This document shows positions 1,326-29,083 of a DNA stretch of 31,849 nucleotides, piece by piece. Made by a program: the position numbers and the translations under genes. The stretch's first letter is position 1; each line of letters begins with the position of its first letter. The stretch comes from Folioceros fuciformis (lineage: Eukaryota): the NCBI GenBank assembly GCA_049999805.1, contig JBNGIO010006294.1:377115-408963 (forward strand), written 5' to 3'. The notes below the pieces were generated by a model that worked only from the letters and a program-made list of their open reading frames with translations, ran no database searches and was not told where the DNA came from.

Positions 1326-3262
1326 TTACTGCTTGCCCTTGTACTGAATCATCTCTTCCTTGTACCTTTCCTGACCTGCAAGGGCTTTCTCCGCCCACAC
1401 TTTCTTGCCATCGTCGCCCAATTCCTGCGCAACACATTCCAGCCCTTGTGAGGAACGACAGGGATACATTCAAACCGCCCATTCTCCAGCCAATGCAAGT
1501 GCGCCGGACTTGCCTGCCAAAGCTTCGACACGATTGTGGTGATCTCTCCCAGCTTAGCTCCAGGATTCGCGGTCCTCACTTCCAGCTGCTTATCCTTCCT
1601 GCACCATATCACTTTGTTAACAGTCACCGTTCGTCACATAAAATAAAAGCACAGGTAGATGCGGGTTAGTTAGCAGCTTACGTGAAAAGGTTGTACGCAG
1701 AGGGTGCCCGCTTCGGCTTGTTAGGATCCTTCACCTGCACTTTGACTTTGGCCTTCATTGACACTCCGTCTTTTGCACCCTGTGCCACAACATTGTCCTG
1801 GTGAGGGGACTCAAACTAATGATTTCCCACAACAATATCAAGCCTAAAATAAGACAGAAGGTACCTTCTTCCTCAGAGAAGGAGAAGACTCGGATTCATC
1901 TCCTTCCTCGTCATCACTACCAGGTACATCAGCCTGATCACACGAACCTTCGGGTCAGTCTAAAATTCGAGGGTAACATGCAAGAGCACATCAAACAAAA
2001 TCACTTACGTCGCCTCTCTTCAGCTTGTAGGCTTCAAGCTCACTAGCATAACGAAGTTTGTCTTCAGCAGCGATCTGAAACAGCATAAATGAAAAGAGTG
2101 AACTGGGATCGTAACTTGGATTCCAGTGCTCATTTATGCTGCGAATTTTTGAAAATACGCATGATACCATGATATAAGGACTCTTGGCTTCATCACTGAG
2201 ATTCTTCCACTCGTCTCCAAGAGCCTTTCCGGTCTGTAGGTGCAGCGACGTTAGGAAGCAAAGGCTTCCACCTTAACTTACACACAGCACACATAAATGC
2301 AACACACTTACTTCAGTGAACGAAAGATTCCGTTCAGCACGGAGAATTGGACGTCTCTCCGCAGAGTAAACAAAGAAAGCAGTCAGGGCTTTCTTCGGTG
2401 CTTCGGGGTCTTTCGTTTTCCTGCTACAAAGACAAGAAGAAATAACACACTGAGGCTTGGAACAAAACACTACACACCATGAGCCAAACAATGGTAATCG
2501 AAACGGGAACACGATGGTACCTTTTTGACTTGCTTTCCTCGACTTCAGGCTGCAGTATTGAAAACAGACAATCTCAGCCATGGTTTCACGACATACAACA
2601 GACACCAACATCAGTTGTTTAAGAAGGAAAACAGGGACCAAGATCCTCACCGGACTTGCGCGAGCTTGCGCCTTCTGAAGCTTCTTCAACTTAACCTCCC
2701 TTTTCTCTTGTGCTTCACTTTTCAGCTGGAGAGCAGCAGCCTGCTGATCTAGCTTCGCCTGGATAGCCTGGAGGCGAGCTTCCTGTTCGTGCAGCTCAGC
2801 CGCCTTCTTGTCCAGGTCCATGCGCTCCATGGTCTGCGTCACGGCGGCCACTTCCTTGTCCAAGCAGCCTTGCAGAGGCACCTCCTTCTTTTTCGATGCT
2901 CTCTTGGTGGCCTTGACAGCTTCAGGCGGAGGAGAATCAGCAGCGGGCGCCTCAGGGGCGGGCTCCTCGGCATGTGGAGCAACTTCAGCCACTGTGGCCT
3001 GCGGCGCCTCCACGGAAAGGGCCTTGGGCACCTTACCAGTTCTAGTACCCTTCTTCGCCGCCACGGGGACATCATTCACCAAGTTCTCCTTCTCCGCCTC
3101 CGGCATCGTGGCCGCCTCCACCGGCTTCGTGCCCCTACCCTTCTTGGTGTAGACAGCAGTCTTCTGTTCAGTCACATCGGCTGCCGGTACCTCCGAAGGA
3201 ACACGCATTTCCATCGATACAGTTGCGGGCAGGGCCGCTCCACGGACCCTACGAGGACCCAT
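1326..3262 (-). CDS. HMG-box protein, 416 aa, with a long basic/coiled-coil N-terminus and two HMG boxes (resembles plant 3xHMG-box family). Exons 3262-2651, 2549-2521, 2420-2312, 2233-2168, 2074-2009, 1933-1865, 1797-1682, 1598-1514, 1424-1326
   Basis: Hand-spliced model stays in frame (1251 nt). Box 1: KDPEAPKKALTAFFVYSAERR...TGKALGDEWKNLSDEAKSPY...EDKLRYASELEAYK. Box 2: KDPNKPKRAPSAYNLF...GEITTIVSKLWQELGDDGKKVW...ERYKEEMIQYK. Seven GT-AG introns and one GC-AG intron. Confidence 0.9.
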
Positions 3263-3416
3263 TCCGACAGCTACGATACGCTGAGAGGAGAAGCGAAAAC
3301 CCTATCGACGCAGCAGCAGAGGCTCGGCACCGAGGATGCGTAGTCTGGAGCTGGACAGCAGGCGAGGGGGATAATGGCCGAGGCGGGAGTGCGAGGTAGG
3401 CTTTTGAGAGGACGAA

Positions 3417-9217: not shown

Positions 9218-9775
9218 AGTATGTATGTGCATGCATTCTTGTCATCTATACTCGTAGGCCGCTAGGGCAAACCTCGATAAATGAGGACCTCGTTGAGTTA
9301 ATGTTGGGCTAATGTAAATGTTGGATTATGAAGTGTTCCTATAACTCGACATGCAAATTTCTAAGACATTTCATAAGGTTGGTGGTGCGTGCGTGAGCTT
9401 TCAAGAATGGCCCAATCCCACGAAAGCTAAGGGCGGGCATGGGCTCAGCAGAAATGATAGCAAAGGGAAAGGGAAAGGCAAGTTCAAGCAAGGTCCTACC
9501 CAATAGCAACAATTGTTGCAGCAACACTCTCCACAGTTTCTAAAGATAATAGTGAAGGGGTTGTAGGAGGGCCAAGTCTCGAGGCTATTGATGTTGTTGG
9601 GGATGGATAGTGTGTAGTTCGTTTTGGCTGTCTTGCAAAATCCGTGTCCATAGAACATGTCCACAAGTGAAGATCGATCAATATTAAGCAGTAGGTTGGT
9701 TGTGAACTTGGGCAGTCGGCATCGATCGAGCATTGAAACCCAATGCAGTTCGAAGGCTGTTGAACAAGCAAGACA

Positions 9776-12417
9776 ATGGTGATGGGAATTGACCTGATTG
9801 GGAAGTACAAGCGGGGGGCCCACTTACGGGTCCTCCCTTGGAATGTGAGAGGTTTGGGCGGTTGGTCTAAATCCACCTCTAAGTGTCGTAGGTTGCAGCA
9901 TCTCCTGCGAGAGGACATCACCTGGGATGTGGTTTGTCTGCAGGAACACAAACTTTCGGCAAATCACATACAACGAATCAAAAAGCTGTTTCTGCCAGGG
10001 CACTTAATGTGGGTCCGGGAGAGAGCAGCAGAGGAAGGAGCTAGTACTAACCCTAGAGAGTATGAGTTGGCCACGAGGGGAGGCATCTCTATCATGGTCC
10101 ATCCAGAGCAAGCCCAAAACGTTCTGGAGACAGAAGATTTGGGAAGGTTTGTGTGGGTGGTGTTGCAGACTCCCCAAGGCCCCCTGGGCATCTATAATGT
10201 TTATGCCCCCAATGTGGGGTCGGAGAGGAGTCTCTTATGGAGTCGTCTAGTGAACATCTGAGTGATCGGATACTATGGATTATGGCGGGCAACTTCAACT
10301 TTGTTGAAAGACGAGAGGACATCCAAGGGGACAGTGAGGTGGACATTGAGAGGGTGCACTTATCCTGGCAAGAGCTAAGAGACACTAACTTTAATGTGCA
10401 GGATCTGTGGCTGGCTCTTCTGGCGCAAGGTCTTCAAGACTCTCTCAAGTTCAGCTGGTCCAATCAGCAGCCGGCGTCTTGTGGGGCTCGAAGGCTGGAT
10501 AGGTTCTACGTTCCCACTATGTGCCTACCATATGTGCAGGAGTATAGTATTTTGGCTGGTACAGTGCTATCAGATCATCACTTGATCAGCTTGCTTTTAC
10601 AGCTCTCTCCCGGAGACCTCCGACACAAAAGGGACAAGAGAGGGTTTCGGATGAATACGTCTCTCCTAGCGGAAGAAGGGTGTATGAGCGCATTAAGAGC
10701 ATATGGCAAAGTATAGAACAAGGAGATAAGCCGGTAGTGCAAAGGCTTATGAGCGCGAATACTGAGGCCACTACCTTTCTGAGGAGGCTGGGCTCACAGC
10801 GCAAGAAAGAAAAAGCCCGGTTAGAGGACTTCCTTCGAGATGAATTGGGTTTCGTCCAAAGAGAAGGAGAAGTACGGGCGCTGACTGGGGAAGAGGAAGG
10901 TAGGCTCCGGGAAATTCAGTGCAATCTTGCAAAGCTAGAAGAGGATAGAGCGAGGGGCTGGTACAAGAGGGCTAAAGTGAAGTGGGTGCAAGAAGGAGAC
11001 TGCCCCTCTAAGTTCTTCTTCGACAAAGTGGCAGCGAATTGGCATAAGTCAAGAATCCCCGCGCTCCCCGATGCGCAGGGCATCATGCAAGACTCCCTTA
11101 GTGGCTTGAAAAAACAGTTCACTTGCTTTTATGTTGGAATTTTTGCAAGTCTCGGAAAGCTGGCAGGATGAGAGGACCTTTAGCACTCGACCTACGGTCA
11201 ATTTTCTGCTAAAGTGACAAAGGCTCAACGTACGACTCTTGACAAACCTTTCACAGCCGCGGCGGTGGTGCAAGCGCTCAAGGAGATGCCGAGGAACAAA
11301 TCTCTAGGGCAAGATGGAATCCCTCCTGAGTTTCTAGCTTGGGGATGGGAATTTATGGGGCCGCTCTTCATGGAGGCAGTCAACATGATATGTGAGGAAG
11401 GAAGTATGAGCCCATGGTTTAACCTAGGCCTCATTTCCCTTCTACCTAAACAGGATGCTAGTCTTTCCATTGCTAATTGGCGACCCATTACCCTCCTTAC
11501 GACCACTTCCAAAGTGATTGCCGAAGTCTTAGCAAACAAGCTCAAGCCCTTTTTGGATGACTGGTTGGAGGTGGAGCAACGGGGCTTCATCCAGAACAGG
11601 TGTATTCTAGATAACCTACTGCTTTTGCGTGAGGCTAAGTTTAATGCCCTATCTCAATGCAAGCCGGCAGTGTTTATCTCCTTAGATTTTTACAAGGCTT
11701 CTGATTCGGTTGAATGGCACTTTCTATAGAGATGTGTGAGAAGCTTTGGTCAGGTAACAACTTCTGCAGATGGATTGCAATTCTCTGTGAGGACGCAGGT
11801 GCAATGGTCTCTGTGAATGGCTCCTTTACTGACAGGTTTGATATCAAGCGATCGGTACGTCAAGGATGCCCTCTGGCCCCGTTCCCATTCATCATTGTCA
11901 CTGACTTTCTTTTGCGGGCAGTCAAGCAAGACCCAAGGATTGAAGGCATTCAGAATCCTAACGGCTCGCAGTTGCGTATCTTGGCTTTCGTTGATGATAC
12001 CCTGTTATTCTCATCTGCAGATACGACGACCTCAACAGCCTTGCTCTCCCACGTACAGACCATTGGTCAGCTATCACGGTGCAATGTGAATTGGAGCAAG
12101 ACTAGGATGATGTGTGTTAACATGCAGGGGGAGCCACCCGACAATATCAGACACATTATAAGGGTCCAGCCCGGCTCGTCACACAAGTACCTAGGCCTAC
12201 CATTTCAAGAAGAGGATGAGAATGCTGAGATTGGTAAATATGTCTGCCTTAGGTTCATCAGGAAAGCAATCAATTTACACCTTTGGATCTTAGTCTTGCA
12301 GGCAAAATTGTGGACATCAACCATGTTTTAACCGCTTCCCTATGGTACTACCTGTTCTTATGGGCCCCTAGCAAGGTAGACCTGAGGAGGTTGCAGTAGA
12401 TTATATCCAACTTCTAA
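9776..12417 (+). mobile_element. Degenerate L1-clade non-LTR retrotransposon (LINE) ORF2: AP endonuclease + reverse transcriptase, 3' truncated
   Basis: EN motifs WNVRGLG, VCLQEHK, NVYAPN, AGNFN, RLDRFY, LSDHH; linker WVQEGDCPSKFFF; RT motifs KSLGQDGIPPEF, NWRPITLL, QRGFI, SLDFYKASDSVEW, RQGCPLAP, FVDD, KYLGLPF. Several frameshifts and stops. Ends abruptly at IISNF. An ORF1 remnant may lie at ~9400-9770. Confidence 0.93.
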
Positions 12418-12762
12418 CAGGGTCTGTGCCTAACGGTCGTATTCCGCCAAATCTGGCTTCGGGTCATTTTTGGCGTCATTTTTCGTGGCACATATCCAGA
12501 AATCATGCTATTTGGTGTGGATTACCCCCAAATCTATGGAAAAACGGTCACGAAAAACTTTTTAATCGTCATGTTTACCCAGAAACTAGCCGAAATTGCA
12601 GGTTACCAACAGTAAAACTTTTTGATCTTATCCAGTTCCACGGTTGGTCTGACACTACCGCCTGCATGTAGACAGAATGCTATTTTTTGAAATTGGAATT
12701 ACTTGAAACTGTAAAATGTTAAAGCTTTTTCAATAACATTCATTTAACCTTGGACGGTAGGA

Positions 12763-12817
12763 GTGCGCCGGTCTATCAGCGTACTCCTTGCTTAAGTCCA
12801 CCGGTAGACCAGCGCAC
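12763..12817. repeat. Two degenerate copies of the 22-bp palindrome near the transposon left end
   Basis: GTGCGCCGGT-CT-ATCAGCGTAC (12763) and GTCCACCGGT-AG-ACCAGCGCAC (12796). Confidence 0.8.
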
Positions 12818-13067
12818 TCCTTCCGGTGAAGCGATGAGTAGTAGGTGAACACCTAGATCGGGTCTGGGGAAAGTGCATCAGAACTATTCAAAATGAGTTA
12901 GGGTTAGGCCAGCGCACAGTTAGGGCGAGGTAGCCTTTCTCTATGCGCACCCCCACAAGGGTGCTTATGAATAGCCAACCACAACTCTTTGCCAACAGTG
13001 TTCATGTGTATAAAGTATGGAATACATGAAAGTACTTAACCGGTATAGCCTACGTTTCATCAAGTAG

Positions 13068-16000
13068 TCATGCGAGGTCGTCATCAAGTTCATGTACATG
13101 GTTTTCTTGATCTTGCCTAAGCACGTACAAGTTCTTTCTGATAAGGTTTCGAGTGCGAGCGTGTAGCTGTTTTTGACGAGTCAACTCAAATCCATACACT
13201 GAAATAAAAGTGTTCGCGACATATATTGTGTCAATATGCTTCCAAAGTCTTCTGCTTGGCCGTCGCTTACGTCGTCGTGTAGAACCCATGACCAGGTCTT
13301 CATTCGGCAATATCATCTCCTCTTGATAATGGCCTTCAAATGCATCTGAACATTTCGTGACCCACCAATGGACTGTGATATTTTGAGTGTCATTTTCCTT
13401 CTGCGTGTCCAGCACTTTCGTGATCCAAAAAGGCCTGTTGTCTACGTCTGTCTCGCATGGGACAGCAATCATGTGCCCTACTTCAATCTCTGATACATCT
13501 CTACTGAAGCTGTCAACATCGTTCCCAACGTGTGTGTCTTTTCTATACGGTCCCACATACATATCTCTTCTAGGAACTTCTTGTATCCGTGGGTTTTCCA
13601 ACACCAAAGCATCTGGCACGAGTAACGGGGTATTTACCAACTCTGCCTCGTCGCGATTATACCATCGCCATGGCCAATCATGGTCTTGCTCTACACCCGA
13701 ATTATTAATTTGAACGATGGCCTCTTACTCGGCCCAAAATGAATCCCACCAGATGTCTTTGCCCACACCTAAGTGCTGACGTAATTTGAACTCCAATCTT
13801 GATCGAATTTGGCACAGATTATATCCTGGGACATTGTCTGTAATACTCTTTTGTTTCCTACTCCTCACCTGCAGATGCATCAGTGGAGTGGCTTTCATAT
13901 TCCTCTCCGGAACTGCTTTCAGGAGTTCTATCCCTTCATCAGGCGACCAGTATCGATTAGTGGAATACTGTTTCCCTCTCATAACTGTAACAGGTCCACG
14001 ATCTCCGCGACTCTCTTTTGTGATCTTGAACTGGTGTTGAAACGATATATTATGCAGCTGATGAACCGTTGCAACACTCTGATATCCTGCTTTCCCATAA
14101 GGTATAGGCCAAACAAACTTTCTGAAGTCTGGAACCTCCTTCACCTCTTCAACATCTGGCACGGGGGTATAAGCGCCCTGCATAAGTGCAATCAATTTTG
14201 GTAAAGTCAAAGCTTCTTTCCGACCGAGTGCTGTTGAAAACCTGGAAAACATCTGATCAACCTGGTCATGCGTATGCCCTACTAGCAGGAATTTGACTTT
14301 TATCTTCAAGAAAACCCGCTTTTCCACTAACATATTCAAATAAGAAAACAGCAACGCGTTTTTGTTCTCGCGTGCCGTGTTGTCTAGCTGCAAATAAAGT
14401 ACTCCAGGTAGCAAGCCTTCATACTCGTGAATCACGCGCTGAATAATTGATATTGTTAAGTTCGCATCGTTTCGAATGTTGCCGAACTCGATGAAGAGCT
14501 TTGGTGTCAAAGTCTTGTTGTATACCATACACCCTACTACATAGACATCAATGAGGCCAACATCCGCTAAATCTTTGGGCACTCGTACGAAATGGGGCAG
14601 GTGAGTCTTCTGTTGATCCATTCCATCTACTGATATTCCAATGTACTTTTCGGTGTCGTCATAACATTTGACCCGATGTTTTATACTCTTCTCGTGCTCT
14701 GCCTTCAGTCTTTTTGGATGAAGCTTCAAGTCAGATTCAAAGACCTCTACAAAAAACATCAAATAGTTTACATTAGAATATGGAAAAAGTGTGCGACCTA
14801 GTGGGTGTGCACCGATAGACCGGCGCACATCCGCCACAAAGCAGTCAATCCCTTCATTTCTTGCGTGGGAGAGGAAGGTGTGCGCCGGTAGACCGACGCA
14901 CACCCGCCACAAAGCAGTCAGTCCCTTCATTTCTTGAGTGGGAGAGGAAGGTGTGCGCCGGTAGACTAGCGCACACCCAGCAATGCGCAGTCACCATGAC
15001 AACTGAAGGGTTCGAAACAAGGGCAGTGCGCCGGTCTACCGGCGCACTCACAACATCATTGGGAAGAAAAAGTGCGCCGGTCAACCGGCGCACTTCACAT
15101 GATGGAATGCAGTGCGCCGGTCGACTGGCGCACGTCATATGCCTACATGAAACGTAACTGAAGAAACACGCTCACATACCTTGTTCTTCTTATCAGACTC
15201 GGCTCTGATGTTTCTTTTCAGGTAATCGCAGGTTGTACATAGCGAAAACCTGTTTGTCTTTGGAATTCGCACCTTGTAGAAATGTGAAGCCCACAATTGA
15301 CAGAAATAACAATAAGACACACTGTACTGTTTCGCTTGTTGCATTTGCTGCTTGTACTCCCTAAAAATTTCCCCTTTTGTGTACGAGTCGGGAAGATGGT
15401 ACACTTCAATGTTTGGCATGCGTTCTACAAGGAGGCAGAACAATTGATCCATCCAAACATAAGCAGCCATAGCGTGATCCCAGGTGCACTTTTCTGCGTG
15501 GACAGAGCCCACCCACATAATGTTTTTCAAAGCTCTTTCTTTTGCTGCCTTGTACCTGTTCGCACCGATGCAGAAAACTCGTCTGAACACGACCCGACAA
15601 CAGCGTATCTTTACAGATCCAATGAGAAAGGGTCCATCCGAAGTGCGCTTGACATCAAACCGGGTCTGCAAATACATTTCTTTCTCTATCCTGCACAGGT
15701 TTAGAAATGGATCTCTCAAATCCCAAAAGCTTGGTTTGCCTAAGGATCTGAGACACTGCTTTGCACAACATAGTCTCCGGTAATCTGAAGAAATGCGGAT
15801 TTCAGAACACTTTTCCTCAGGTATAGTCGAGATTTGTTTCTTCCGACTGCATCGATGATCTCCAAGAACTTTAATCAAGGACTCGGATGATGGTTTTAGA
15901 TTGTATGTTTTTCGCGGCGATGTGCCCGTCGTCTTGACCGCGTCTACGGCCAAGACATCCCCTGCTTCGGCTTCGGGCTGGAAGCGCTCTCTGGTCGATT

Positions 16001-16139
16001 CTTCTAGTACCCCGTGTCCACTCGCAATTCCTTCTGCATTCGAATCATCAAAGTCCCCGTGCAAGATTGTGCGATATGCATTTCGCTTCAGAGGTGTTGT
16101 TTTCATGGTCGCTGGCATGAAAGGATACTGGCTTCTCAA
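13068..16139 (-). pseudogene. DDD transposase (DUF7869/Sola-like), two exons (~16139 or further upstream to 15180; ~14747-13068), one premature stop at 13725-13727
   Basis: VRIPKTNRFSLCTTC...H zinc-binding-like motif, then ISVDGMDQQKTHLP, LYLQLDNTARENKN and FLLVGHTHDQVDQMFS (three candidate catalytic Asp). Strong donor AAG|GTATGT at 15179; acceptor near 14747 has uncertain phase. ORF 13068-13640 is in frame beyond the TAA. True start uncertain (in-frame sequence continues towards ~16440). Confidence 0.85.
14805..15133. repeat. Six copies of the 22-bp palindrome inside the transposase intron, including a 73-bp tandem unit
   Basis: Copies start at 14807, 14880, 14953, 15026 (73-bp period), 15072 and 15112. 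Confidence 0.92.
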
Positions 16140-16739
16140 AGGGCTTGCCGGCGTATGGATGCCGTCGAGAAGACTCAGACATACAGGAGACTGTCGGAAG
16201 TCGATGTCGATTCCTTCAGAATCATCGGGAACAAAGCAGCAAGATGGGAACAGCGAAGATCAGACTATCAACTTCAACAAACGAAAGCCCGTCTTTGACC
16301 GAAGTCGTGGCCTACCTTGAGAAATGAACTCCGATGCTTTCGTAGGCACCATGTCGCATGAGAAAGAAGCCTGCCAATCCATGCCAATGTCGCATTGATT
16401 AACCGGAAAGGAGCTTCCTTGCAGGATGCATTCTACCGTCACTCACCGATTCATTGAATACAGGTTACGCTGACATAATTAAGCCGCCTTTTTGATATGA
16501 ACGTTTGATCACTAAAACAAGTAGCTGTTGTTTATCGGGAACGGCACCTTTAATCGTTGTTCTAACATAAATGCAGAAGACGTTGCTCAAACACGCTTCC
16601 TATTTCAGGCAACACAAATTCAACTTCACAGTTGACTTTAAATCTTTTCGTTCAAAGCTTTAGTCGTTGCTGAGTGCTTCTGCATCAACTCTGGTCATTT
16701 GAAGTTTTCTCGTTCGCTTCCTCTCCTGCGCAGGCGAAA

Positions 16740-17496
16740 ATGGCAGCAGGCCGGCGAAGCAACAAGCATCTGAATGCAGCTATTGATCTTGAAGTATTGG
16801 AGGCACCATCACGGCCAAGGATACCAAGACAGGGGGCGAAAGCTTTAGCTCACGCTGCATCTGACCCCATCATCGAGAGAGAGAACCAGCGGCGACCATC
16901 GATCACAGTAGGAGATGTTACACCATAACCAACAGCTCGCGCATTGAGGAAAGACAATTCAGGAGGGAGCATCCGTGCCTCGAACAGCAAAGCTAGCGAG
17001 GTTAATGTTAACCAGGTGCCTATAAATGTGACTCATGGTGGCAGCACTAGTGGTAGTTAGAACCACAATATTCCAAATGCGTACAACTTCATTGAGCGCT
17101 TGAAGCTAAAGAAACTTGAAGACACGCTTGCTAAAAGGTTCAACACAGACAAAGAGTGGTTTTTAGTGATGGAAGAGGAGCCAGCAGACTACAGTTTGCC
17201 GTGGGTGCCGCCCCATGGCTCTGTGGATTAATGGTTTCCAAGGCCTGCCGGACGATGAGGCAGGGAGGCCTGGGTGGATTCTCTGTGCATCCATTGACGG
17301 CGTCGAACACAAAACACACGTCAATTTCATTTGCACGCGGCACCCACCAAGCCATATCATCGATGAGTACGATAGCCACAACCTGATTGTGGTGAATTTT
17401 GTGAAAGCTGTGCCACGGCGATGTGAACCGATGTGGCTAAAAACGGCTTTGAAAGATTGTCTGAGTGTGCAAGATGTTAGTATATGCCTAGCTTAG
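16740..17496 (+). pseudogene. Disrupted ORF of unknown function inside the transposon (separate gene or 5' exon of the ParB-MTase gene)
   Basis: From ATG 16740 the frame reads through TAA (16926) and TAG (17058) into YNFIERLKLKKLEDTLAKRFNTDKEWFLVM. It then shifts frame to LWINGFQGLPDDEAGRPGWILCASIDG. Possible donor GTTAGT at 17476. Confidence 0.45.
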
Positions 17497-17500
17497 CCCT

Positions 17501-17509
17501 AAACCCTAA
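17501..17509 (+). promoter_or_regulatory. Telo-box (AAACCCTAA) upstream of the acidic exon of the ParB-MTase gene
   Basis: gccctaaaccctaa read directly; telo-boxes are common near plant transcription starts. Confidence 0.35.
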
Positions 17510-17562
17510 TTACTGGCTTGTTCTGGGTGTAACAGGGAGGTGAATAGTTCTGCCAAACTATC

Positions 17563-20481
17563 TTGCGATTCTATGCCGATTGCGTCTTCGAGAACCGCGC
17601 GCTTGCATTCAGGATCGCCGGGGAGCGCCAGCAAATTGCGACAATCGCAGATTTTACTGCCAGCGCAGGAAGGGTGACAAGGAAGCAAGTGGAGATGCCG
17701 GGCTTGCAGCCAGAACTATCTGAAGAGGAGTTGCGGGAGGTTGAGGAGCTGAGCTCAGACGAGGAGAAGGAGATGGGAGGTTACTCCTCGACAGAAGACA
17801 GCCTCAACGAGGCCATGGAAGGTGGAAGAGGCTTACGGTCTGACCGGGAAGAAGAGGAGGAATCGCCTGTGGAGGTCACGCCCCCCAGAACGAAGCAGAA
17901 GATGGTGCTCCGGCCTACCGGCACCCCAGTCATGAAGAAGAAGAAGACGGCCATGACCTCTCTTGCGAGGTCTTGAAAAAGAGCCACAAGTGGGTATCTT
18001 GCTAATCGGTCTGCAATGTGGTCGGGTCTGGTTTCCTTACTGTCTGGTTTCTTGTCGTGAATATCTGTTGCAACAATTGCTGTGGTGTCATTGCAGCTTC
18101 ACCACAGAAGAGGAAGAGCAGGTCGACAGGGTCTGCCAACGAGGCCTCTATGAGGCGGAAGCAGAGGCGGCAGGCTCAAGGGCCTACTTTCGAGGACGAG
18201 CCGCCCCGAACAGTTGTTCGATCTTCATGTGGATATCCTCCACCCTACAAGCTATATCACAGCAGATGCCCAGATTCATGAGGTTGACGAAGCTTGGATG
18301 AAGTGCCTGGTCAGGCAAATGCAGACAGGGTCTGTGAAGGAAGGTATTTTATCTCTCCTATGCATGATTGATCCGAAACAAGCTTGCAAGAAGGAGGATG
18401 TTTTGCTCGAGAAGATAACAACACAGGGGTACCAGATGGGAGTGCTTGGGGGCAACCATTGCTTTGCAGCTATGCAGAAGCTGCATCAGATGTACCTAGG
18501 AGAAGACAAGTGCGAGTGGATGGAAGGGCATGTTTATGCAGGCCTCACAAATGAGGAAATGCGAGTCCTTGCTGTTGATCACAATGTGTTTGCCGACAAA
18601 CGAAAGAGGATGGGCTTCATCAAACAAGTAAGATATATCCATGATGAGTTGGATATTTTCTACAGGAGCCACGACCTGGACAAGAAGCCACCAGTGAAGT
18701 GGAAATTCAATATGTACAGGTTGTTGGGGATGACTGATGAGGCAGGTGACCCAAGGGATATTGACTGGGTCCAGAAGATGGTGGATAGACAGACATTGCC
18801 ATATCGGGTGGCAAGGTGCAGCGGAGTCCTGTGGGAGGACGTGGACATGATCTTTAAGATGTGGGAGAGGAGCGAGCTTCCGGAATAGGTAGTAGGAGGG
18901 AGCACAGGCACGAAGAAGCGGGCGAAAGCGAAGAGGAAGCCAGGGAAGCTGGCATAGCTTCCAGTAGCACTCCGATTGCTGACGAGTCCACCAAGAAGGT
19001 AATGACAATGCAGGGCAGGCCTTGGAGGGCCTTTCAAGGGGTTCCAGCAAGAGCAAAAGGAGAAGAAATGTTGATCGCAGTGACGCAGAAGGTCATACAG
19101 GGGAAGCTCCAGCTAAAGGATATGGACGCAGAGGTGGGCAAGAGGAAGAAGATCCATATGATATAGCACGCATTTCGCATAGCGTTGAAGTGCGCGACCT
19201 TCGAAGAAGCCGAACAGATCTACCCCAAGCACACCGAAGACGCGAATCTTCTTCGATTCCAGACGGCTTTCGCGAAAGTGGTAAGTTTCCTTTTATTTCC
19301 TTCTTCAATCTCGACTAACCTTGGACACTCACCAGATTGGCTTGGTCAGTGGCTGGAGTGCACCGGTCTACCGGTGCACTACAGCCCTTATGAAGGACTA
19401 GGGCCAGACTGTGGCCGGAGTGCGCCGGTCTACCGGCGCACTCCAAGCATCCTGGCTGCTTAGGCGCAGCATGTGGCTGGAGTGCGCCGGTAGACCGGCG
19501 CACTCCAGCCCGCGCTTGGCCTGTGCCGTTCATATGGGCTAGAGTGCGCCGGTCGACTGGCGCACTCCTGCCATTGACCAAGCCAATGGTGCAGTCTAAC
19601 CATTTTGAAGAATGAATGCTACATAGTTTGCTGACGAATGTATTTATTGGCAGAAACCTACAGATATAAACGACTTGGAATCGTTGCCCAAGTCGTTCCA
19701 GGATTACGTGTACTCAGCACGGAACTGAAAGCGGTTAGAAGAGGAGAAGCAGAAGCTAGCGGACGCCGACATGGATGCTGGGTTGTCAGAGTTCAGAGTG
19801 TCCAACAGCAACCAAAAAACCAAGTATCAAGTGATGTAGTGAAGCGTTCTCGAGATGAGTGGTTTTTTGGTAAAGAGACCTTATACCCTATTGTTCGCTG
19901 ATTTGTCTCGTAGGCTTCAACGACATGATTACGACACGCAGTTGACTAACGAGGAACTTGAAGATATGATCAAGGGGTTTTCGGAATGCACGACTAGCAA
20001 TGTTTATCGAGGGGTGCTTATGCATGGAGTTGACCTGATCTCACAAGCGAGAGAGGCACTTAGGCCGTGGTGCAAGAAAGGCACCATACAGACACTGGTT
20101 TGGGAAAAGACGAATATTCCGCCGAATGCAAGGGCAGTGGAGACTGTGGAGTACTTGACAGTTGGCAGTGCAGACCACTTGGAAGCTTAGACCACCAAAG
20201 CAGCCTTATTCGCGAATCAGGGTTTTCTACTGCCAAGAGTGATAAGGCATGGTGCTGTTGTGAAAAAGCACCTTTTTCACTTGGCAGATTCGATGGTCGT
20301 CTCCCCATACCAGAAGCCGTTGGGGCTTATGGGGATGCTAGTGAACATGTTTTCGATTGAAGGGGACTGGGTCGTGGATGCCTGTGCAGGATCCGGATCA
20401 TTCCTTCAGGCTGCTATTCAGAGAGGGAGGCATGTAGTCGCGATGGACGTCGATATACGTTGCACGACTAGACGTAGCTAA
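17563..20481 (+). pseudogene. Spliced gene: acidic/NLS region + ParB/Sulfiredoxin-like domain + helical linker + beta-class N4-cytosine/N6-adenine DNA methyltransferase (N6_N4_Mtase-like). Introns 17990-18096 and 19281-19653
   Basis: ParB-like: QIHEVDEAWMKCLVRQMQTG and YQMGVLGGNHCFAAMQKL. MTase in beta order: YTLLFADLSR (motif IV position, 19900), TLVWEKTN...VEYLTVG, SPYQKPLGLMGMLVNMFSIEGDWVVDACAGSGSFLQAAIQRGRHVVAMDVD (motif I at 20377-20400). Both introns preserve frame. In-frame stops at 17974, 18886, 19164, 19726, 19837, 19840 and 20188, plus frameshifts near 18210 and 18900-18960. Start codon uncertain. Confidence 0.82.
19336..19587. repeat. Four-copy palindrome array with exact 62-bp period, enclosed by an 18-bp inverted repeat, inside intron 2 of the ParB-MTase gene
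   Basis: 22-bp cores at 19358, 19420, 19482 and 19544, each extending to ~36 bp (GGCTGGA...TCCAGCC) with 26-bp spacers. Flanks attggcttggtcagtggc / gccattgaccaagccaat. Confidence 0.92.
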
Positions 20482-20870
20482 CCAGGCTCAGAGGGGAGCG
20501 ATTCCGAGGAAGACTACAACAACCGTGGGATTGATGTGGCCACGATACATGTGAGCGGGTGCCTTGTAGGGGTACCATACCTGCTTGCCCACAACATCCT
20601 ACCGGTATGGAGAATGGAGAAACCTTTAAGAGGATGACCTCATTGCAAGCTCAAAAGAGCAAGTACATGTAATAATCCATTATAAAACTTGCTGCACACA
20701 TGTTACAAAATGTGTCACAAACCACCCTATTATGCAATAATAATACCGCATTCGAATTAAAGCATATTACTAACCTCATGTGCAATGAAGAAGATTGTCT
20801 TAGTAGAAGCTTATCATGAGCTGCACCTTAAGCAAGATAACCTTAATACAAGGCACTGAAATGAGGTGTT

Positions 20871-21012
20871 TACTGAAGTTAATAACACTTATGGCCTTCT
20901 TGATGTGATTGTGAAAAAAATGTAAGATGAAAATGGAAAGTACTAAAGTTAATAACACTTATGGTTTTCTTGATGTGATTGTGAAAAAAATGTAAGATGA
21001 AAATGGAAAGTA
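20871..21012. repeat. 70-bp tandem duplication (2 copies)
   Basis: tact(g/a)aagttaataacacttatgg...gatgaaaatggaaag at 20871 and 20941. Confidence 0.9.
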
Positions 21013-21080
21013 TTAGAAACGATATCAAAAGGCGAAAGAGAGTAAAATAGCAATGGGGAGTATAATACCATTTGGCTACA

Positions 21081-21211
21081 CTTTCATGTATTATGATTGA
21101 TCTTGGAGACAAGAACCTAAAATTCCAAGGGATTCTAGGTGTCTTACCTTTATGCATTATCATTGATCTTGGAGAGAAGAACCCAAAATTCCAAGGATTC
21201 TAAGCATCTTA
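21081..21211. repeat. ~66-bp diverged tandem duplication (2 copies)
   Basis: attgatcttggaga(c/g)aagaacc(t/c)aaaattccaagg occurs twice. Confidence 0.8.
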
Positions 21212-21727
21212 TATGTTGGTAAGTCAAAGGCTTTGCAAGATACAGATAACTCACTTTCAAATGTTACAAAGAGTGGAACTTAGTTGACTTTGAGCTAGCT
21301 TTAGATTTGGTGATTTACTTCGTGCATCTTATTATGTAATTTCTAATTTTGATGATTTCGCTCAAGAACAATGTGTGGAATCCCAAGTAAGCCAAACATG
21401 TATACAATACATGTGATACTAGAGAAGGCAAAAAAGTCAAGCATAGAAGTTCCTCTACTTTGAGAGTTAGAAAGAAAATTGCAACAGACCTTTTCTTTTT
21501 AAACTATTGATCGAAGATTGAAGTTGCTATGTTGACAAACGAAGCCTTACTTGAAATTTAATGTTGTTCGTTCGATTTTCATCCTTATTTGTGATTGAAT
21601 CAATAAGAAATACAACATTTGCTAATTGCTCCTTTGAAATCATACTAGTATACTATGCCATAGGCAAAGCTCCTACCCATACATATCCGCAATAATATGA
21701 GGCGGCAACCCCATAACATGACAACAA

Positions 21728-21830
21728 GTTCCATAATTGTTGAGCAAAACATGTAGGGGCGTAGCGTATCAACCAAAAGAGGTTCCATAATTGAAGCACA
21801 AAACATGTAGGGGTGTAGGATATCAATCCA
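21728..21830. repeat. ~54-bp diverged tandem duplication (2 copies)
   Basis: gttccataattg...aaaacatgtagggg(c/t)gtag occurs twice. Confidence 0.75.
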
Positions 21831-24472: not shown

Positions 24473-25566
24473 TTACACAACTTTTTTCACCTCCTGCAGC
24501 TTCTTCTTGTCATGCAACCCGAACATCTCTTCGAATAAGTACTCCCGCAGCCATGACGGAGAGTAGTAGAGGACGTAGAACAGTGTCGAAAGGTGTCCAA
24601 ACACGACGGTCCTGGGACTGTTCGTTTTCTGGACAGCTTCAAGGATTTTCCGAGCCAAATCCGTACTCGGTGTTGATTTCGATGACTGAGAGCCAACAGC
24701 CCGCTTTTCAATGACAGTATCATATGGTTGGTACAACTTCAAACCAGGCAGATTTTGTTTCGATCTGAGTGCTTGCTTTCCAATGTTGGAAATGATGGCC
24801 CCCGGTGCAACGAGGATGACCTGTATGTCGAACGGTTTCAGCTCCAACCTGTGCGATCTGGAACTGATCAGAGGTTCTGGAAATGCATTTACGCTCAGGT
24901 TTTCATCATCAACGCCTCAGAGTACCTCAAAGTCTCGGTGAAAGAGTGCACTGCTGCTTTGGTTGACGCATAAACACCTGCCCAAGGGGCAGGACAGAAG
25001 GCAGAGATGCTCCCAATGTTCACAATCTTCCCTTTCCGTCTGGCTGCCATGTGCGGCACCACTGCTCGGATGAGGGAGAGTGGACCTGCAATGTAGCGGA
25101 TCAGGAAAACCGAACGATCTCGCGATACACATGCAAGGTATACATGTTCCAGCGCAACAGATTGTCTCCGCATTTCACTCCAAGCAACAGGCACTAGTTT
25201 CTTAACACAATCTGGGGAAGAGGTATGTAGTCACCTACCATACACATTGGTCTTGTAGCACCTCTCTAGCATGTCGTGGGGAACCTCAGCAAGAGGCCCG
25301 ATACACTGTGTCCCAGCATTGTTAATGAGCACATCTATGTGCCCAAACTTGGCCACCACGGTGTCCACCGTTTCTTCAATCACAGACTGCTCTGCAGTCA
25401 CGTCAAGCTGGAGCAACTCCACGTCTGGATACTGCTCCAACGACTTCATCCACTCCACGGAGAGGTCAGTTGCCACAACTGTGAATCCTGCACTTGCAAA
25501 CACGAGGCACAGGGCATTGCCGATGCCACCGTCTGAGCAACCTGTGATCAGCACAACCTGCTTCAT
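24473..25566 (-). CDS. Classical short-chain dehydrogenase/reductase (AYR1-like), copy A, 287 aa; exons 25566-25239, 25085-24926, 24848-24473
   Basis: TGCSDGGIG, DVLINNAG, IVNIGSIS, YASTK catalytic motif, LELKPFDIQVILVAPGAI; canonical GT-AG introns, in frame (864 nt). Confidence 0.92.
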
Positions 25567-26589
25567 CACGTCGACTGTGCTGAAGCAGGCCAAAGCCACA
25601 TTCGGGTTGCAATTAGGTGCGGTCAATTAGGTGTTTATGTACACGAAGGCAGGGCCTACCCGCATCTACAAAGTAGATCCTCATCTCGCCGGTTCGGCGA
25701 TATCCCCTGCGTTGCCAAGTGTAGTCATGGCGCTTGACGAGTGTTAGTCACCTCCGTCCATCACGAGGTTCAGCTGGGTCATATGTGTGCAAAAGCACCA
25801 GCCACAAGGCATGTCGAGCTGTAGGCAACGACGGCAGCACTGGACTATGCGCCTGACCTGGGGAAAAAGAGGTCAAGTTGCAAACAAAACGAACGTTGGG
25901 TACCGATCCAGTCCGTCAATATCCCTGAGACTGGAGATGCAGCGAGGTGTCATTTTATATTCCCTCCAATTCCATCAAGACCACCACACTGTGGGTTGGC
26001 CCTGAACTGGCAGGGAGGCGCTGTCAGACCCTTTGATGTGGAGTAGGTGCAGGAGTGATGGGGCTTTCTCAAGCAGCTGGCCAGCTACAGTGAAACCCTC
26101 TTCATTGACTACCTAGCCATGTAAGATGGAGAAGGTCTACTTACGGCTCATGACGTCGGTGAACAAAGGCACAGCTTTGGCACACTCGCCAGAAGTTGTG
26201 GCTAAGAGGAGCAACACCGTGCTCACCATTGTCGCGAAGAGCAGCTTTCTGTCTCCGTTCTCGTACTCCAGGACGTGATCGTGAGTTTCACCATCTCTTA
26301 CGTTTCACCTACCCCTGTTTCCATCTGCAGCTACGCATCACAAACGCTAAAAGATACACAACGAGACGTTGAGCATTTTGAAATGTGTTTCACCTGGTGG
26401 GATATTACCTCCCCCGAAAGTGGATCATTGTCCCCTGAGATGATGAGAACCCTTATGGCGTTTGAGACAACGGTGGGAAGAAGCGTAAACGAGCGGCAAC
26501 TTCTGCCCTCATTTTCGGTGGCTGCCAGGAAGAAGTGAGCTTCCATATCCTCCCTTCAGGAAAGGCTCAAATCCGGGTGGACGTCTGGA

Positions 26590-26910
26590 AGCTGAGGCAT
26601 CTTCCTGGCTGCAAATGCTGACCGGATTGCGCTGAATCGTGGGGGAGGGCTTATAAATTCGCGCTGTTGCGCGCAGGATGCAGGGACAGGACATTCCGGC
26701 AGCTGCAGTTACATGCCTGGAGTCGCACTCCGGTCAGATCTACGAGGATTCATTGGATGGTTGGGGAGTAGTCCGCAAGGCTAGGCTTTGGGCTGCATTC
26801 CATGATGTGGACCAGATGGCAGGGACTGGAGTAGCGTTTCGGAGGGAGCTGATGAAAGCGACTTCACCTCAACTTGAGCTTTCATTACACAGGAACTGAA
26901 ATGCTTTCCC
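26590..26910 (+). pseudogene. Decayed partial copy of the alpha/beta-hydrolase gene at 23371-24405
   Basis: GIFLAANADRIAL vs GIFVAAAADRIGF; QGQDIPAAAVTCLE vs EAQGIPAAAVECLE; ARLWAAFHDVDQMAGTG vs AKIRVALQDVGVLDGAG; RELMKATSPQLELSL vs KEVVKEISSDLELTV. Internal deletions present. Confidence 0.75.
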
Positions 26911-26978
26911 AGCTGGAAGGGGAACTGAGGGCTCACCGCGCCGTTCAGGGTACGGGGCACGACCGAAGGTGTGCCCAA

Positions 26979-28132
26979 TTACACAGCTTTCTTCACCTCC
27001 TCTAGCACCTTCTTGTCATGCAACCCGAACATTCTCGCGAATAAGTAGTCCCGGAGCCATGAAGGAGCGTAGTAGAGGACGTAGAAGAGGGTGGAAAGAT
27101 GGCCAAACACCAGGTTGCGGGGACTGCTCTGTTTCAGGACTGCTTCAAGGGTCTTGCGAGCCAATTCCGCGCTTGGTGTTGATTTCGCTGATTGAGAGAC
27201 CATAGCGCGGTTGTGAATATGTGTGTCATACGGTTGGAACAGCTTCAATCCTGTTAGACTTTCTTTTGACCTGACTGCCTGCCTTCCCATGTTGGAAGTA
27301 ATGGCCCCTGGTGCAACGAGGATGACCTGTATTCCGAATGGTTGCAGCTCCAACCTGTGATACGGGAACACTTGGGTTCAAGAACCGCGTGTATGGACAG
27401 GACATGTTTCCACATGGACAACCTGCAGGTAGAATTACCTCAGAGTTTCGGTTAGAGAATGCATTGCTGCTTTGGAGGACGCGTAAACACCTGCCCAGGG
27501 GGCAGGACAGAAGGCACTGATGCTACCAACGTTCACAATCTTTCCTCCTTTCCGCCTGGCAGCCATATGAGGAACCACTGCTCGAATGAGGGATAGTGGA
27601 CCTGCAAGGAGGCGGATCAGACAGTCACCACCACCACCAGGACAAGCACTCCCTTCGGGCAACGATTGGAGTTGCAGGCAGAGAAAAGAAAGTAGGCATA
27701 TCCCAGAGCTACAGCATGTCCAATCATCTGCCGTAAACACTTCTTGCTGCTCAGCTAGAAATCAAACAACGCCGAGGGAAGGGAAGATGCAAGTAGTCAA
27801 TCACCAAACACGTTGGTCTTGTAGCACCTCTCTAGCATGTCGTGCGGGACCTCAGCCAGAGGTCCGATACACTGTGTCCCAGCATTGTTTATGAGGACGT
27901 CGATGTGCCCAAACTTGTCCACCACAGATTCTACCGTCTCCTCGATTACAGCCTGCTCTGCAGTCACGTCCAGCTGAAGCAACTCCACGTCCTGTATCTG
28001 CTCCAACGACTTCATCGATTCCAGGGAGCGTGCGGTTGCCACAACCTTGAAGCCTGCATATGCAAACTCTACAGCCAGGGCATGGCCGATGCCACCGTCT
28101 GAACATCCCGTGATCACCACAACCTCCTTCAT
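26979..28132 (-). CDS. Classical short-chain dehydrogenase/reductase (AYR1-like), copy B, 288 aa; exons 28132-27805, 27601-27439, 27354-26979
   Basis: TGCSDGGIG, ATARS, DVLINNAG, YASSK; same exon structure as copy A, in frame (867 nt). Confidence 0.92.
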
Positions 28133-29083
28133 CACCTCGATTGCGTGGAAACAGGGCGGTCCACAATCGGGTTCAGTGATGTGTACGATTCTCTCGCATA
28201 TAATAGATATACGAACACGGACATGATGAAAGTTAGTGAAAAAGGTAGGGTAAATTCTCTTGTACTTGCTATTCAAAGACCCAGGATTAAACCTTACCCA
28301 ACAGGGCCGATATTTGAGTTTTACAATTACACTTCTTTCCTCCGATGTAAGAGCTGTTAGGCAACGCTCACACAGGTTTGGCTCCCCCTTGTCTCCGGGG
28401 TACCGATTTCCGGTCGTGTTGCAACAGAATGGTGCTGGGCCTGGTCGCGCAAGCCGTGCTTCAGGCTGTAACGGAGCTTGTCTTGTGGGAGTCGGCAGGG
28501 ATGGCATTTTCCAGCAGGTTGATGTAGTGGATGACCGGCGGGGGGAGTTGATGGAAGGGAGCACTAGGCAGGAAGAAGCAGGTGATGCAGGCAGAGCGAG
28601 GGCGCGTGAAAGTGCGGGTGAGTGCACTGCTTGTGGTGTGGGGATGTGTGCCCCTTTGCTCTTGTGCTGTGCAGCCCTAAACGGTAGAGTGTGCAATGAG
28701 AGCTGGCGGTGAGATATTGTCATTCTGCCGGGAAACTGTCGTCGACGGGGGTAATTGGGGTTGGAGCCAGGCCTTTGGAATTTCAACTCGTGCTCGTCGT
28801 CGCCGTCCTCGTCAGCTTCTTATGCTGCCGGCCCCTGTCTTGTATTGTGACAAGCTTCATGTGGTTGTGGGAAAGCAAGCGCAGAAAATTCGCACCCAGC
28901 TCGCGCGACAGGAGAGCTGGGCGGCAGGAGCACGAGCTCCAGGGCAAGAATTCGAGCTCCCCGTTCCTGTCCTCGTCGCTCTCTGCCACACGCATTGTGA
29001 TCAGGAAGGTTTCCTTATGATTCAAGAAATCTGCAACGGACTCAAGTCTGCCGCCTTTGTAAAAGGTTTTGTGGGCGAGAGGG

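Follow-up and report, generated by a model that had tools for sequence, protein, structure and literature searches.

What does an exactly periodic array of palindromes do inside an intron? The question was raised by a 31,849-nucleotide stretch of the Folioceros fuciformis genome (GenBank assembly GCA_049999805.1, contig JBNGIO010006294.1, positions 377,115 to 408,963 of the forward strand; hereafter the window), in which an initial annotation had described such an array as CRISPR-like and as a palindrome of palindromes, and had suggested a structured or small RNA or a symmetric protein-loading platform. The array lies in a copy of a transposable element assigned to the Sola1 type, and sequence comparisons point, in our judgement rather probably, to its being one of five clusters of family-specific palindromic sites that would be bound by a ParB-like accessory protein of the element. 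The element, its slots and the family-specific motifs were read directly from the DNA, and the protein folds were assigned on models.

The figures first given for the array were re-measured and hold: four palindromic units of ~36 bp (19351-19386, 19413-19448, 19475-19510 and 19537-19572) are separated by three 26-bp spacers with an exact 62-bp period. The units, in that order, are self-complementary at 32, 28, 34 and 30 of 36 positions, have the centres CT, CT, AG and CG as reported, and contain 22-bp cores at 19358-19379, 19420-19441, 19482-19503 and 19544-19565. The 18-bp inverted repeat with 1 mismatch that closes the block was likewise confirmed (14/15 positions matched outside the units), as was the match of spacer 1 to the reverse complement of spacer 3 at 15/26 positions (binomial p = 4e-4 at 25%). 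Two folds had been proposed for the 252 nt, of which the long hairpin was recovered (minimum free energy -204.4 kcal/mol, z = -19 against 200 shuffles) and the four-arm form proved much less stable, the short-range fold reaching only -153.3 kcal/mol; with everything but the units shuffled the energy was -167.5 ± 4.8 kcal/mol (100 shuffles), the native fold being lower. Placement of the array in an intron also stands, as the surrounding GT..AG intron is of phase 0 and joining its flanks keeps the reading frame; it occurs at the same place in 16 copies of the element, the window copy counted in. Beyond what had been annotated, the array core was found 9 more times elsewhere in the window.

The host of the array is a Sola1-type DNA transposon as judged by its transposase domain, conserved Asp motifs, terminal inverted repeats (TIRs), target site duplications (TSDs) and termini. 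Its transposase matched Pfam PF25273 (DUF7869), which we take to be the Sola transposase domain, at E = 3.6e-49 and has three conserved Asp motifs; the gene is interrupted by one in-frame stop (13725-13727), after which a 218-aa frame would be the C-terminal part, and by an intron whose donor site was seen and whose acceptor was inferred from the frame. The closest named transposase relatives were from the liverwort Riccia sorocarpa (34-55% identity across the matches listed). The element forms a repeat family in the window's own 87-Mb genome (83 matches), and no related loci were found in metagenome scans. Over most of its length the window element is 93% identical to a complete sibling (G000:C2463:9164-18111) of 8,948 bp with ~29-bp TIRs; the window copy breaks off at 20469, and siblings extend ~750 bp further. 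Both TIRs were found in 8/19 stretches, with perfect 4-bp TSDs in 7 and one mismatch in the remaining 1, and the termini AACA..TGTT resemble AACCG..CGGTT of Sola1-1_Ec32, an Ectocarpus element. Sola elements are characterized by a DDD transposase, TIRs and a 4-bp TSD (PMC10741241, in the part available), and the element shows a DDD transposase, a 4-bp TSD and TIRs, with a size in the 2-9 kb range.

Within this family, designated A, the core is GTGCGCCGGT-NN-ACCGGCGCAC, a 22-bp palindrome of 10-2-10 form, which occupies five fixed slots 1.4-2.8 kb apart: left subterminal, transposase intron, accessory exon, accessory intron and right subterminal. The window element carries 13 cores (2 at the left end, 6 in the transposase intron, 1 in the accessory exon and 4 in the accessory intron), and siblings have one further core near the right end (slot 5). 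Genome-wide, 229 core matches with ≤1 mismatch were counted, versus 0 for a reversed control. When 26 of the listed core-match loci and 2 further ones were checked, with the motifs masked before aligning, 24/26 and 2/2 aligned to the element. Subfamilies only ~68% alike keep the core at the same slots, and their flanks, spacers and periods differ (core periods of 33, 41-47, 62-64, 73 and 80-81 bp); in the accessory intron the units number 2-7 per copy (16 introns), with periods of 28-134 bp. Spacings of 42, 62 and 73 bp fall near 4, 6 and 7 helical turns and those of 33 and 45 bp do not (R = 0.31 over 31 non-independent spacings). GTMKAC, which would suit a target of restriction-type methylation, fits the centre of 213/247 family A motifs, the centres of two further families (B and C, below) being different. 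The half-sites of the 247 motifs contain 428 changes; C>T or G>A make up 315 of them, chiefly at CG/CCG, an excess that would be the decay expected of methylated dead copies. The window copy is itself dead (stop at 18886, four stops in the last exon, C-terminus missing). Internal deletions in four copies (C4715, L123, L124 and L125; three may share one event) fuse the transposase-intron array to the accessory-intron array, palindrome clusters thus acting as deletion breakpoints.

Table 1. Coordinates in the window of the Sola1-type element, its genes and palindrome slots, and the adjoining repeat
Feature	Position	Strand	Remarks
Family A Sola1-type transposon copy	12416..20469		right ~750 bp missing; break position common with sibling comparison
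Left TIR	12416..12444	+	~29 bp, starts AACA
Slot 1	12763..12817		left subterminal; pair of decayed 22-bp cores at 33-bp spacing
Transposase gene	13068..16259	-	DUF7869; motifs DGMDQ / QLDN / GHTHDQVD; two exons around intron ~14745-15179
Slot 2	14807..15133		six 22-bp cores in transposase intron; spacing 73, 73, 73, 46, 40
Slot 3	17905..17926		single degenerate core in accessory coding sequence, intermediate between motifs A and B
Accessory gene, ParB-like domain and helical middle	18217..19280	+	GGNH motif; stop at 18886 in window copy
Accessory-gene intron	19281..19653	+	373 bp, GT..AG, phase 0
Slot 4 array	19336..19587		four 36-bp palindromic units, three 26-bp spacers, 15-bp flanking inverted repeat outside units
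Accessory gene, beta-class N6/N4 DNA methyltransferase fold	19654..20469	+	four in-frame stops, C-terminus truncated in window copy
Unrelated high-copy repeat	20470..20594		replaces right end of element (slot 5 and right TIR in siblings)

Distant accessory genes of the same genome (30-42% protein identity) were then compared, 18 such stretches being scanned de novo for palindromes. Family B has the motif GGGCGCCGGC-NN-GCCGGCGCCC, which differs from motif A by two changes, each made on both arms, and family C has TGGCGCGC[A/C]C-NN-G[T/G]GCGCGCCA, again symmetric and 10-2-10. Motif B was counted 7 times and motif C, in its A-form only, 5 times in the genome, versus 0 for the controls. The family's own motif was present in the orthologous accessory intron of 16/16 A, 6/10 B and 3/7 C copies, and 1.2-1.4 kb downstream of the last exon in 12/16, 6/10 and 5/7, respectively, on a background of 0 motifs in 21,549 bases; L090 and L095 were assigned to B by DNA likeness and motifs, not by the tree. 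Families B and C mostly hold one or two units. A tree of the methyltransferase part (35 rows, ≥150 aligned residues) gave three clades with support of 100/99-100, in which the clade's own motif accompanied 20/20 A, 6/8 B and 4/7 C rows; two A rows also have one B-scored copy, and one B row also has a C, probably nested. The transposase tree (32 rows) gave the same three clades (own motif in 18/19 A, 4/8 B and 3/5 C rows). Co-evolution with a dimeric binding protein would predict just such concerted, symmetric change of a site at slots whose flanks are unrelated. The exon sites of slot 3 (17905-17926 in the window) and its orthologues are hybrids of motifs A and B in 9/16 family A copies, and the slot 3 site is possibly a relic of an ancestral one. 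Two families have motifs or genes side by side at L078, L095 and C6281 (L076-L077), which suggests that families B and C insert into or beside each other.

The accessory gene probably starts near 16740. An intact relative (P0071, 30% identical over 126 aa; model pLDDT 79.8) served as structural proxy. Its model matched beta-class methyltransferases, among them CcrM (Z 24.1, rmsd 2.5, 216 aligned) and the rotifer N4CMT (PDB 8s9n, Z 19.8), and its residues ~100-236 matched PadC (Z 7.7), ParB-N (7.2), KorB (6.9) and sulfiredoxin (6.0). In the N-terminal region of the accessory protein the ESM atlas features were DUF3723 (0.96) and ParB_N (0.92), and BLASTP of the accessory exon against relatives with both ParB-like and methyltransferase parts gave E values of 9e-12 and 3e-16. 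The proxy model and the atlas features together argue with moderate strength for a ParB-like N-domain. For the second part, PF01555 (N6_N4_Mtase) scored above cut-off in 2/9 sibling frames scanned (29.1 and 31.4 bits versus 26.7), and a PDB sequence search returned weak methylase matches alone (E 0.03-0.05). Motif I, which binds S-adenosylmethionine, is retained, and motif IV takes the form D[LMV]PRG throughout the three clades (most siblings read DLPRG, the window copy DLSRR). A profile search collected 170 relatives, including proteins of Chara braunii and Ginkgo biloba that have the N-terminal region too; word-indexed protein searches found no longer accessory homologues, one of the two having covered the wrong length range. 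In Chara, Ginkgo and other relatives motif IV is DFPY, DIPY or DIPH. Streptophyte proteins of the same family include P0065 (Ginkgo Gb_37443), P0080, P0083 and P0103 (Chara braunii), several with an aromatic motif IV, and the Ginkgo and Chara relatives of that kind are perhaps catalytically active.

In the mechanism proposed here, a dimer of the accessory protein (ParB-like N-domain, helical middle and methyltransferase fold) would grip the two half-sites, in the manner of ParB on parS or VANC on VANDAL motifs, and from these loading points the protein would cover the element and mark or shield its own family from host silencing by cytosine methylation. The site may have been multiplied in introns by slippage or unequal exchange because introns tolerate amplification; since each unit is a palindrome, exchange between units could also invert the intervening spacer and so produce the palindrome of palindromes in one sub-lineage. 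A fuller version, in which a eukaryotic ParB/parS-like system would have the ParB-methyltransferase-fold dimer load at its own palindrome, spread over the ~9-kb element and write or mimic a bacterial-type mark, N4-methylcytosine (4mC) or N6-methyladenine (6mA), that blocks silencing, site and protein evolving together within each family, is put forward tentatively and with less than even expectation.

Several points weigh against binding by the accessory protein. The mismatch filter itself accounts for part of the core conservation, and motifs B and C were defined on the same loci as the slot counts, so that within that evidence only position and symmetry are independent. Motif type agrees equally well with the transposase tree; co-divergence names no binder, and related copies would share labels in any case. 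Old, decayed copies that lack the motif are numerous in B and C, with none in L089, C5343 or the B3-type introns, and the family A TIR has TGCGCC and CGGT in common with the half-site. The ParB-like call derives from a proxy protein, with Z under 8, and from atlas features; Pfam and PHROGs scans gave no ParB match, and modelling the ParB-like exon of the window copy itself gave a pLDDT of 50 and no structural match. Its motif reads GGNH[C/T/S] and lacks the arginine of G-x-x-R, the CTP-binding motif of ParB. In active amino-methyltransferases motif IV is (D/N/S)PP(Y/F/W), with a catalytic aromatic residue; no such residue stands in D[LMV]PRG, and for this reason catalysis by the accessory methyltransferase is uncertain.

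If the accessory protein is not the binder, the main rival is the transposase, of which the palindromes could be sites, serving as internal enhancers that pair the ends or in activating transcription of its own family (compare Spm TnpA and the AtMu1 transposase). In its favour, the transposase tree and motif type agree, two of the slots (1 and 5) are subterminal, motif clusters persist in deletion derivatives (four of which are joined array to array, slots 2 and 4), the family A TIR partly resembles its half-site, and transposases have been reported as sequence-specific activators (bioRxiv 10.64898/2026.08.24.746577, available part). Most sites lie kilobases from the ends, however, the TIRs of families B and C are unlike their own internal palindromes, and in the red algal Plavaka, as far as its description was available, inverted-repeat arrays lie beside a ParB-like gene although the transposase is unrelated; transposase sites are thus considered unlikely. 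In one family A subfamily (L128, L129, L132 and L134-L136; ~68% identity) the TIR interior has changed and the internal palindrome is the same; TIR and palindrome can therefore diverge independently of each other, a slight argument for a binder distinct from the TIR-binding domain. Among Sola copies sought for the absence of the accessory gene, several distant ones had neither gene nor motif and were too fragmentary to count. Neutral or selfish GC-rich micro-repeats, which multiply inside the element through hairpin-driven slippage, conversion and inversion and need no trans factor, would account for the fast change in unit number (2-7) and spacers, for the evident spacer inversions and duplications and, as ordinary post-insertion decay, for the 315/428 C>T or G>A changes. 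They fit poorly with single sites that recur amid unrelated flanks at the same slots of three families (proteins 30-42% identical), changed on both arms at every slot of a given family, and with the near absence of core copies outside the element, and we regard them as an improbable explanation.

The intron might instead act as a structured RNA or a source of hairpin small RNAs, possibly one that modulates how the element is spliced or silenced. The window copy does form a very stable long hairpin, both large arrays are intronic, and spacer symmetry is near-perfect in C4365 (14/15) and C4249 (15/15), from which an inverted duplication in that sub-lineage follows. The symmetry and covariation that the initial annotation had looked to in sibling copies were not borne out. 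The closing inverted repeat (≥11/15) was found in 5/15 testable copies, one of them a 99.3% twin of the window, and the rest matched at 4-7/15 (one copy is N-gapped). Spacer 1 of the window matches the reverse complement of the siblings' spacer 3 at 20/26 positions versus 15/26 for its own, which indicates decay without compensation, and symmetric double changes within units were at chance level (20 observed, 16.3 expected). The latter figures also rule out a hairpin-driven symmetric correction of the units. Moreover, the core is also present in the subterminal slots, which lie outside genes, families B and C seldom have more than two units, and Rfam matches lay far below the gathering score (50.3 and 34.9 versus 100 bits). 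One RNA run was uninformative, its sole match being a contig of 146 bp at the left end. The whole-array hairpin is not conserved and the palindrome of palindromes is a by-product, and a role as RNA is accordingly given very little weight. Of the CRISPR-like label, the regular look of the repeats and spacers stands (36+26 period, palindromic repeats). The spacers, on the other hand, are direct or inverted duplicates that match sibling spacers at 16-24/26 and were vertically inherited, periods range over 28-134 bp among copies, and the host is a spliceosomal intron of a eukaryotic transposon gene whose flanking exons encode the ParB-like and methyltransferase folds. Acquisition of spacers by a CRISPR-type array has next to no probability, being refuted by the spacer homology among copies. 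Among the options first suggested, the symmetric protein-loading platform is the best supported, the palindromes being element-wide and family-specific; binding itself is predicted from the DNA.

The repeat that replaces the right end of the window element was found, among the matches listed, in at least 40 other places at 90-95% identity over ~125 bp. A further copy (G000:C3067, L022-L023) is 99.3% identical to window positions 17787-20469 and has the same stops, with the right end retained. By eye, fragmented LINE-like endonuclease and reverse-transcriptase frames were seen at 9764-12331, with the Sola-type element at their 3' side. Positions 20871-21830 are AT-rich with tandem duplications of 70, 66 and 54 bp, and two short-chain-dehydrogenase-like copies and one HMG-box-like gene were noted by eye on the minus strand at 24473-28172 and 2273-3301.

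Different long palindromes at the same five slots in three families are evolutionary evidence for sequence-specific recognition. The three natural protein-site pairs in one genome offer a 3 × 3 protein-by-site test with built-in controls. As the accessory family occurs in Chara and Ginkgo too, it may be widespread in streptophytes, and if the proposal is true, it would supply a useful tool, an epigenetic writer or shield specific to 22 bp and tunable by family. In a literature search, neither family-specific palindromes nor intronic placement at fixed slots turned up for Sola/ParB-methyltransferase elements, nor did any account of such elements in land plants, and the arrangement is not described in the available parts of PMC4738411 and PMC12730594.

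Bacterial ParB/parS resembles the present system in a ParB/Srx-fold domain and in palindromic sites present in several copies. The bacterial parS site is of ~16 bp; here the site is of 22 bp, ParA and the G-x-x-R arginine are absent, and the protein is a fusion with a methyltransferase fold in a nuclear transposon. The VANC proteins of Arabidopsis VANDAL elements recognize non-palindromic motifs of 8-9 bp, belong with a MuDR transposase and are not known to have a ParB or methyltransferase fold. As far as the sources were available, the motifs bound by VANC21 lie in introns and in intergenic and terminal non-coding regions, form tandem repeats and vary from one VANDAL family to another (PMC5735166), and VANDAL/VANC is the sole proven case named in a preprint on Bostrychia (bioRxiv 10.1101/2025.02.11.637652). 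Accessory protein and family-specific non-coding motifs in tandem repeats that co-vary with it are common to both systems, whereas binding and demethylation have been shown for VANC and are predicted from sequence here. MpDN4MT1 (bioRxiv 10.1101/2021.02.12.428880) and rotifer N4CMT have the same beta-class fold in a eukaryotic nucleus; from the material available, each of these is a single domesticated gene, with the SPPY-type motif that the preprint gives for 4mC enzymes, whereas the present genes are mobile, multi-copy and ParB-fused, with D[LMV]PRG.

For Plavaka PAG3 of Bostrychia, the available text of the preprint (bioRxiv 10.1101/2025.02.11.637652) describes an accessory protein with a ParB-like N-domain and adjoining tandem inverted-repeat arrays proposed as its binding sites. 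A ParB-like accessory protein and arrays of inverted repeats or palindromes are thus common to both. There, however, the transposase is of the EnSpm/Plavaka type, a 2OG-oxygenase is fused to ParB and the arrays adjoin the gene; here the transposase is Sola1-type, the partner is a methyltransferase fold and five slots, including both introns, are occupied, with family-specific changes of a kind not described for Plavaka in that text. Sola1-1_Ec32 of Ectocarpus has an accessory gene with ParB-like and N4/N6 methyltransferase parts, proposed to bind and modify its own element (PMC12477816), with AACCG-CGGTT termini and a 4-bp TSD (supplement of the same paper, in part). The word stem "palindrom" does not occur in the main text of PMC12477816, nor is a palindromic target given on the Sola row of its supplement. 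On these descriptions the two elements share the Sola1 type, a 4-bp TSD, AAC..GTT termini and an accessory gene on the strand opposite the transposase; Sola1-1_Ec32 is of 21.5 kb with a 282-bp TIR, versus ~8.9 kb and ~29 bp here, and is one family versus three co-diverging ones. A Sola1 element with a ParB-like/methyltransferase helper (Ectocarpus) and inverted-repeat arrays by a ParB-like gene (red algal Plavaka) had thus already been published in 2025, with binding to the own element as a hypothesis; what is new here is that the palindromes are family-specific, co-diverge with the proteins and stand at fixed slots that include introns.

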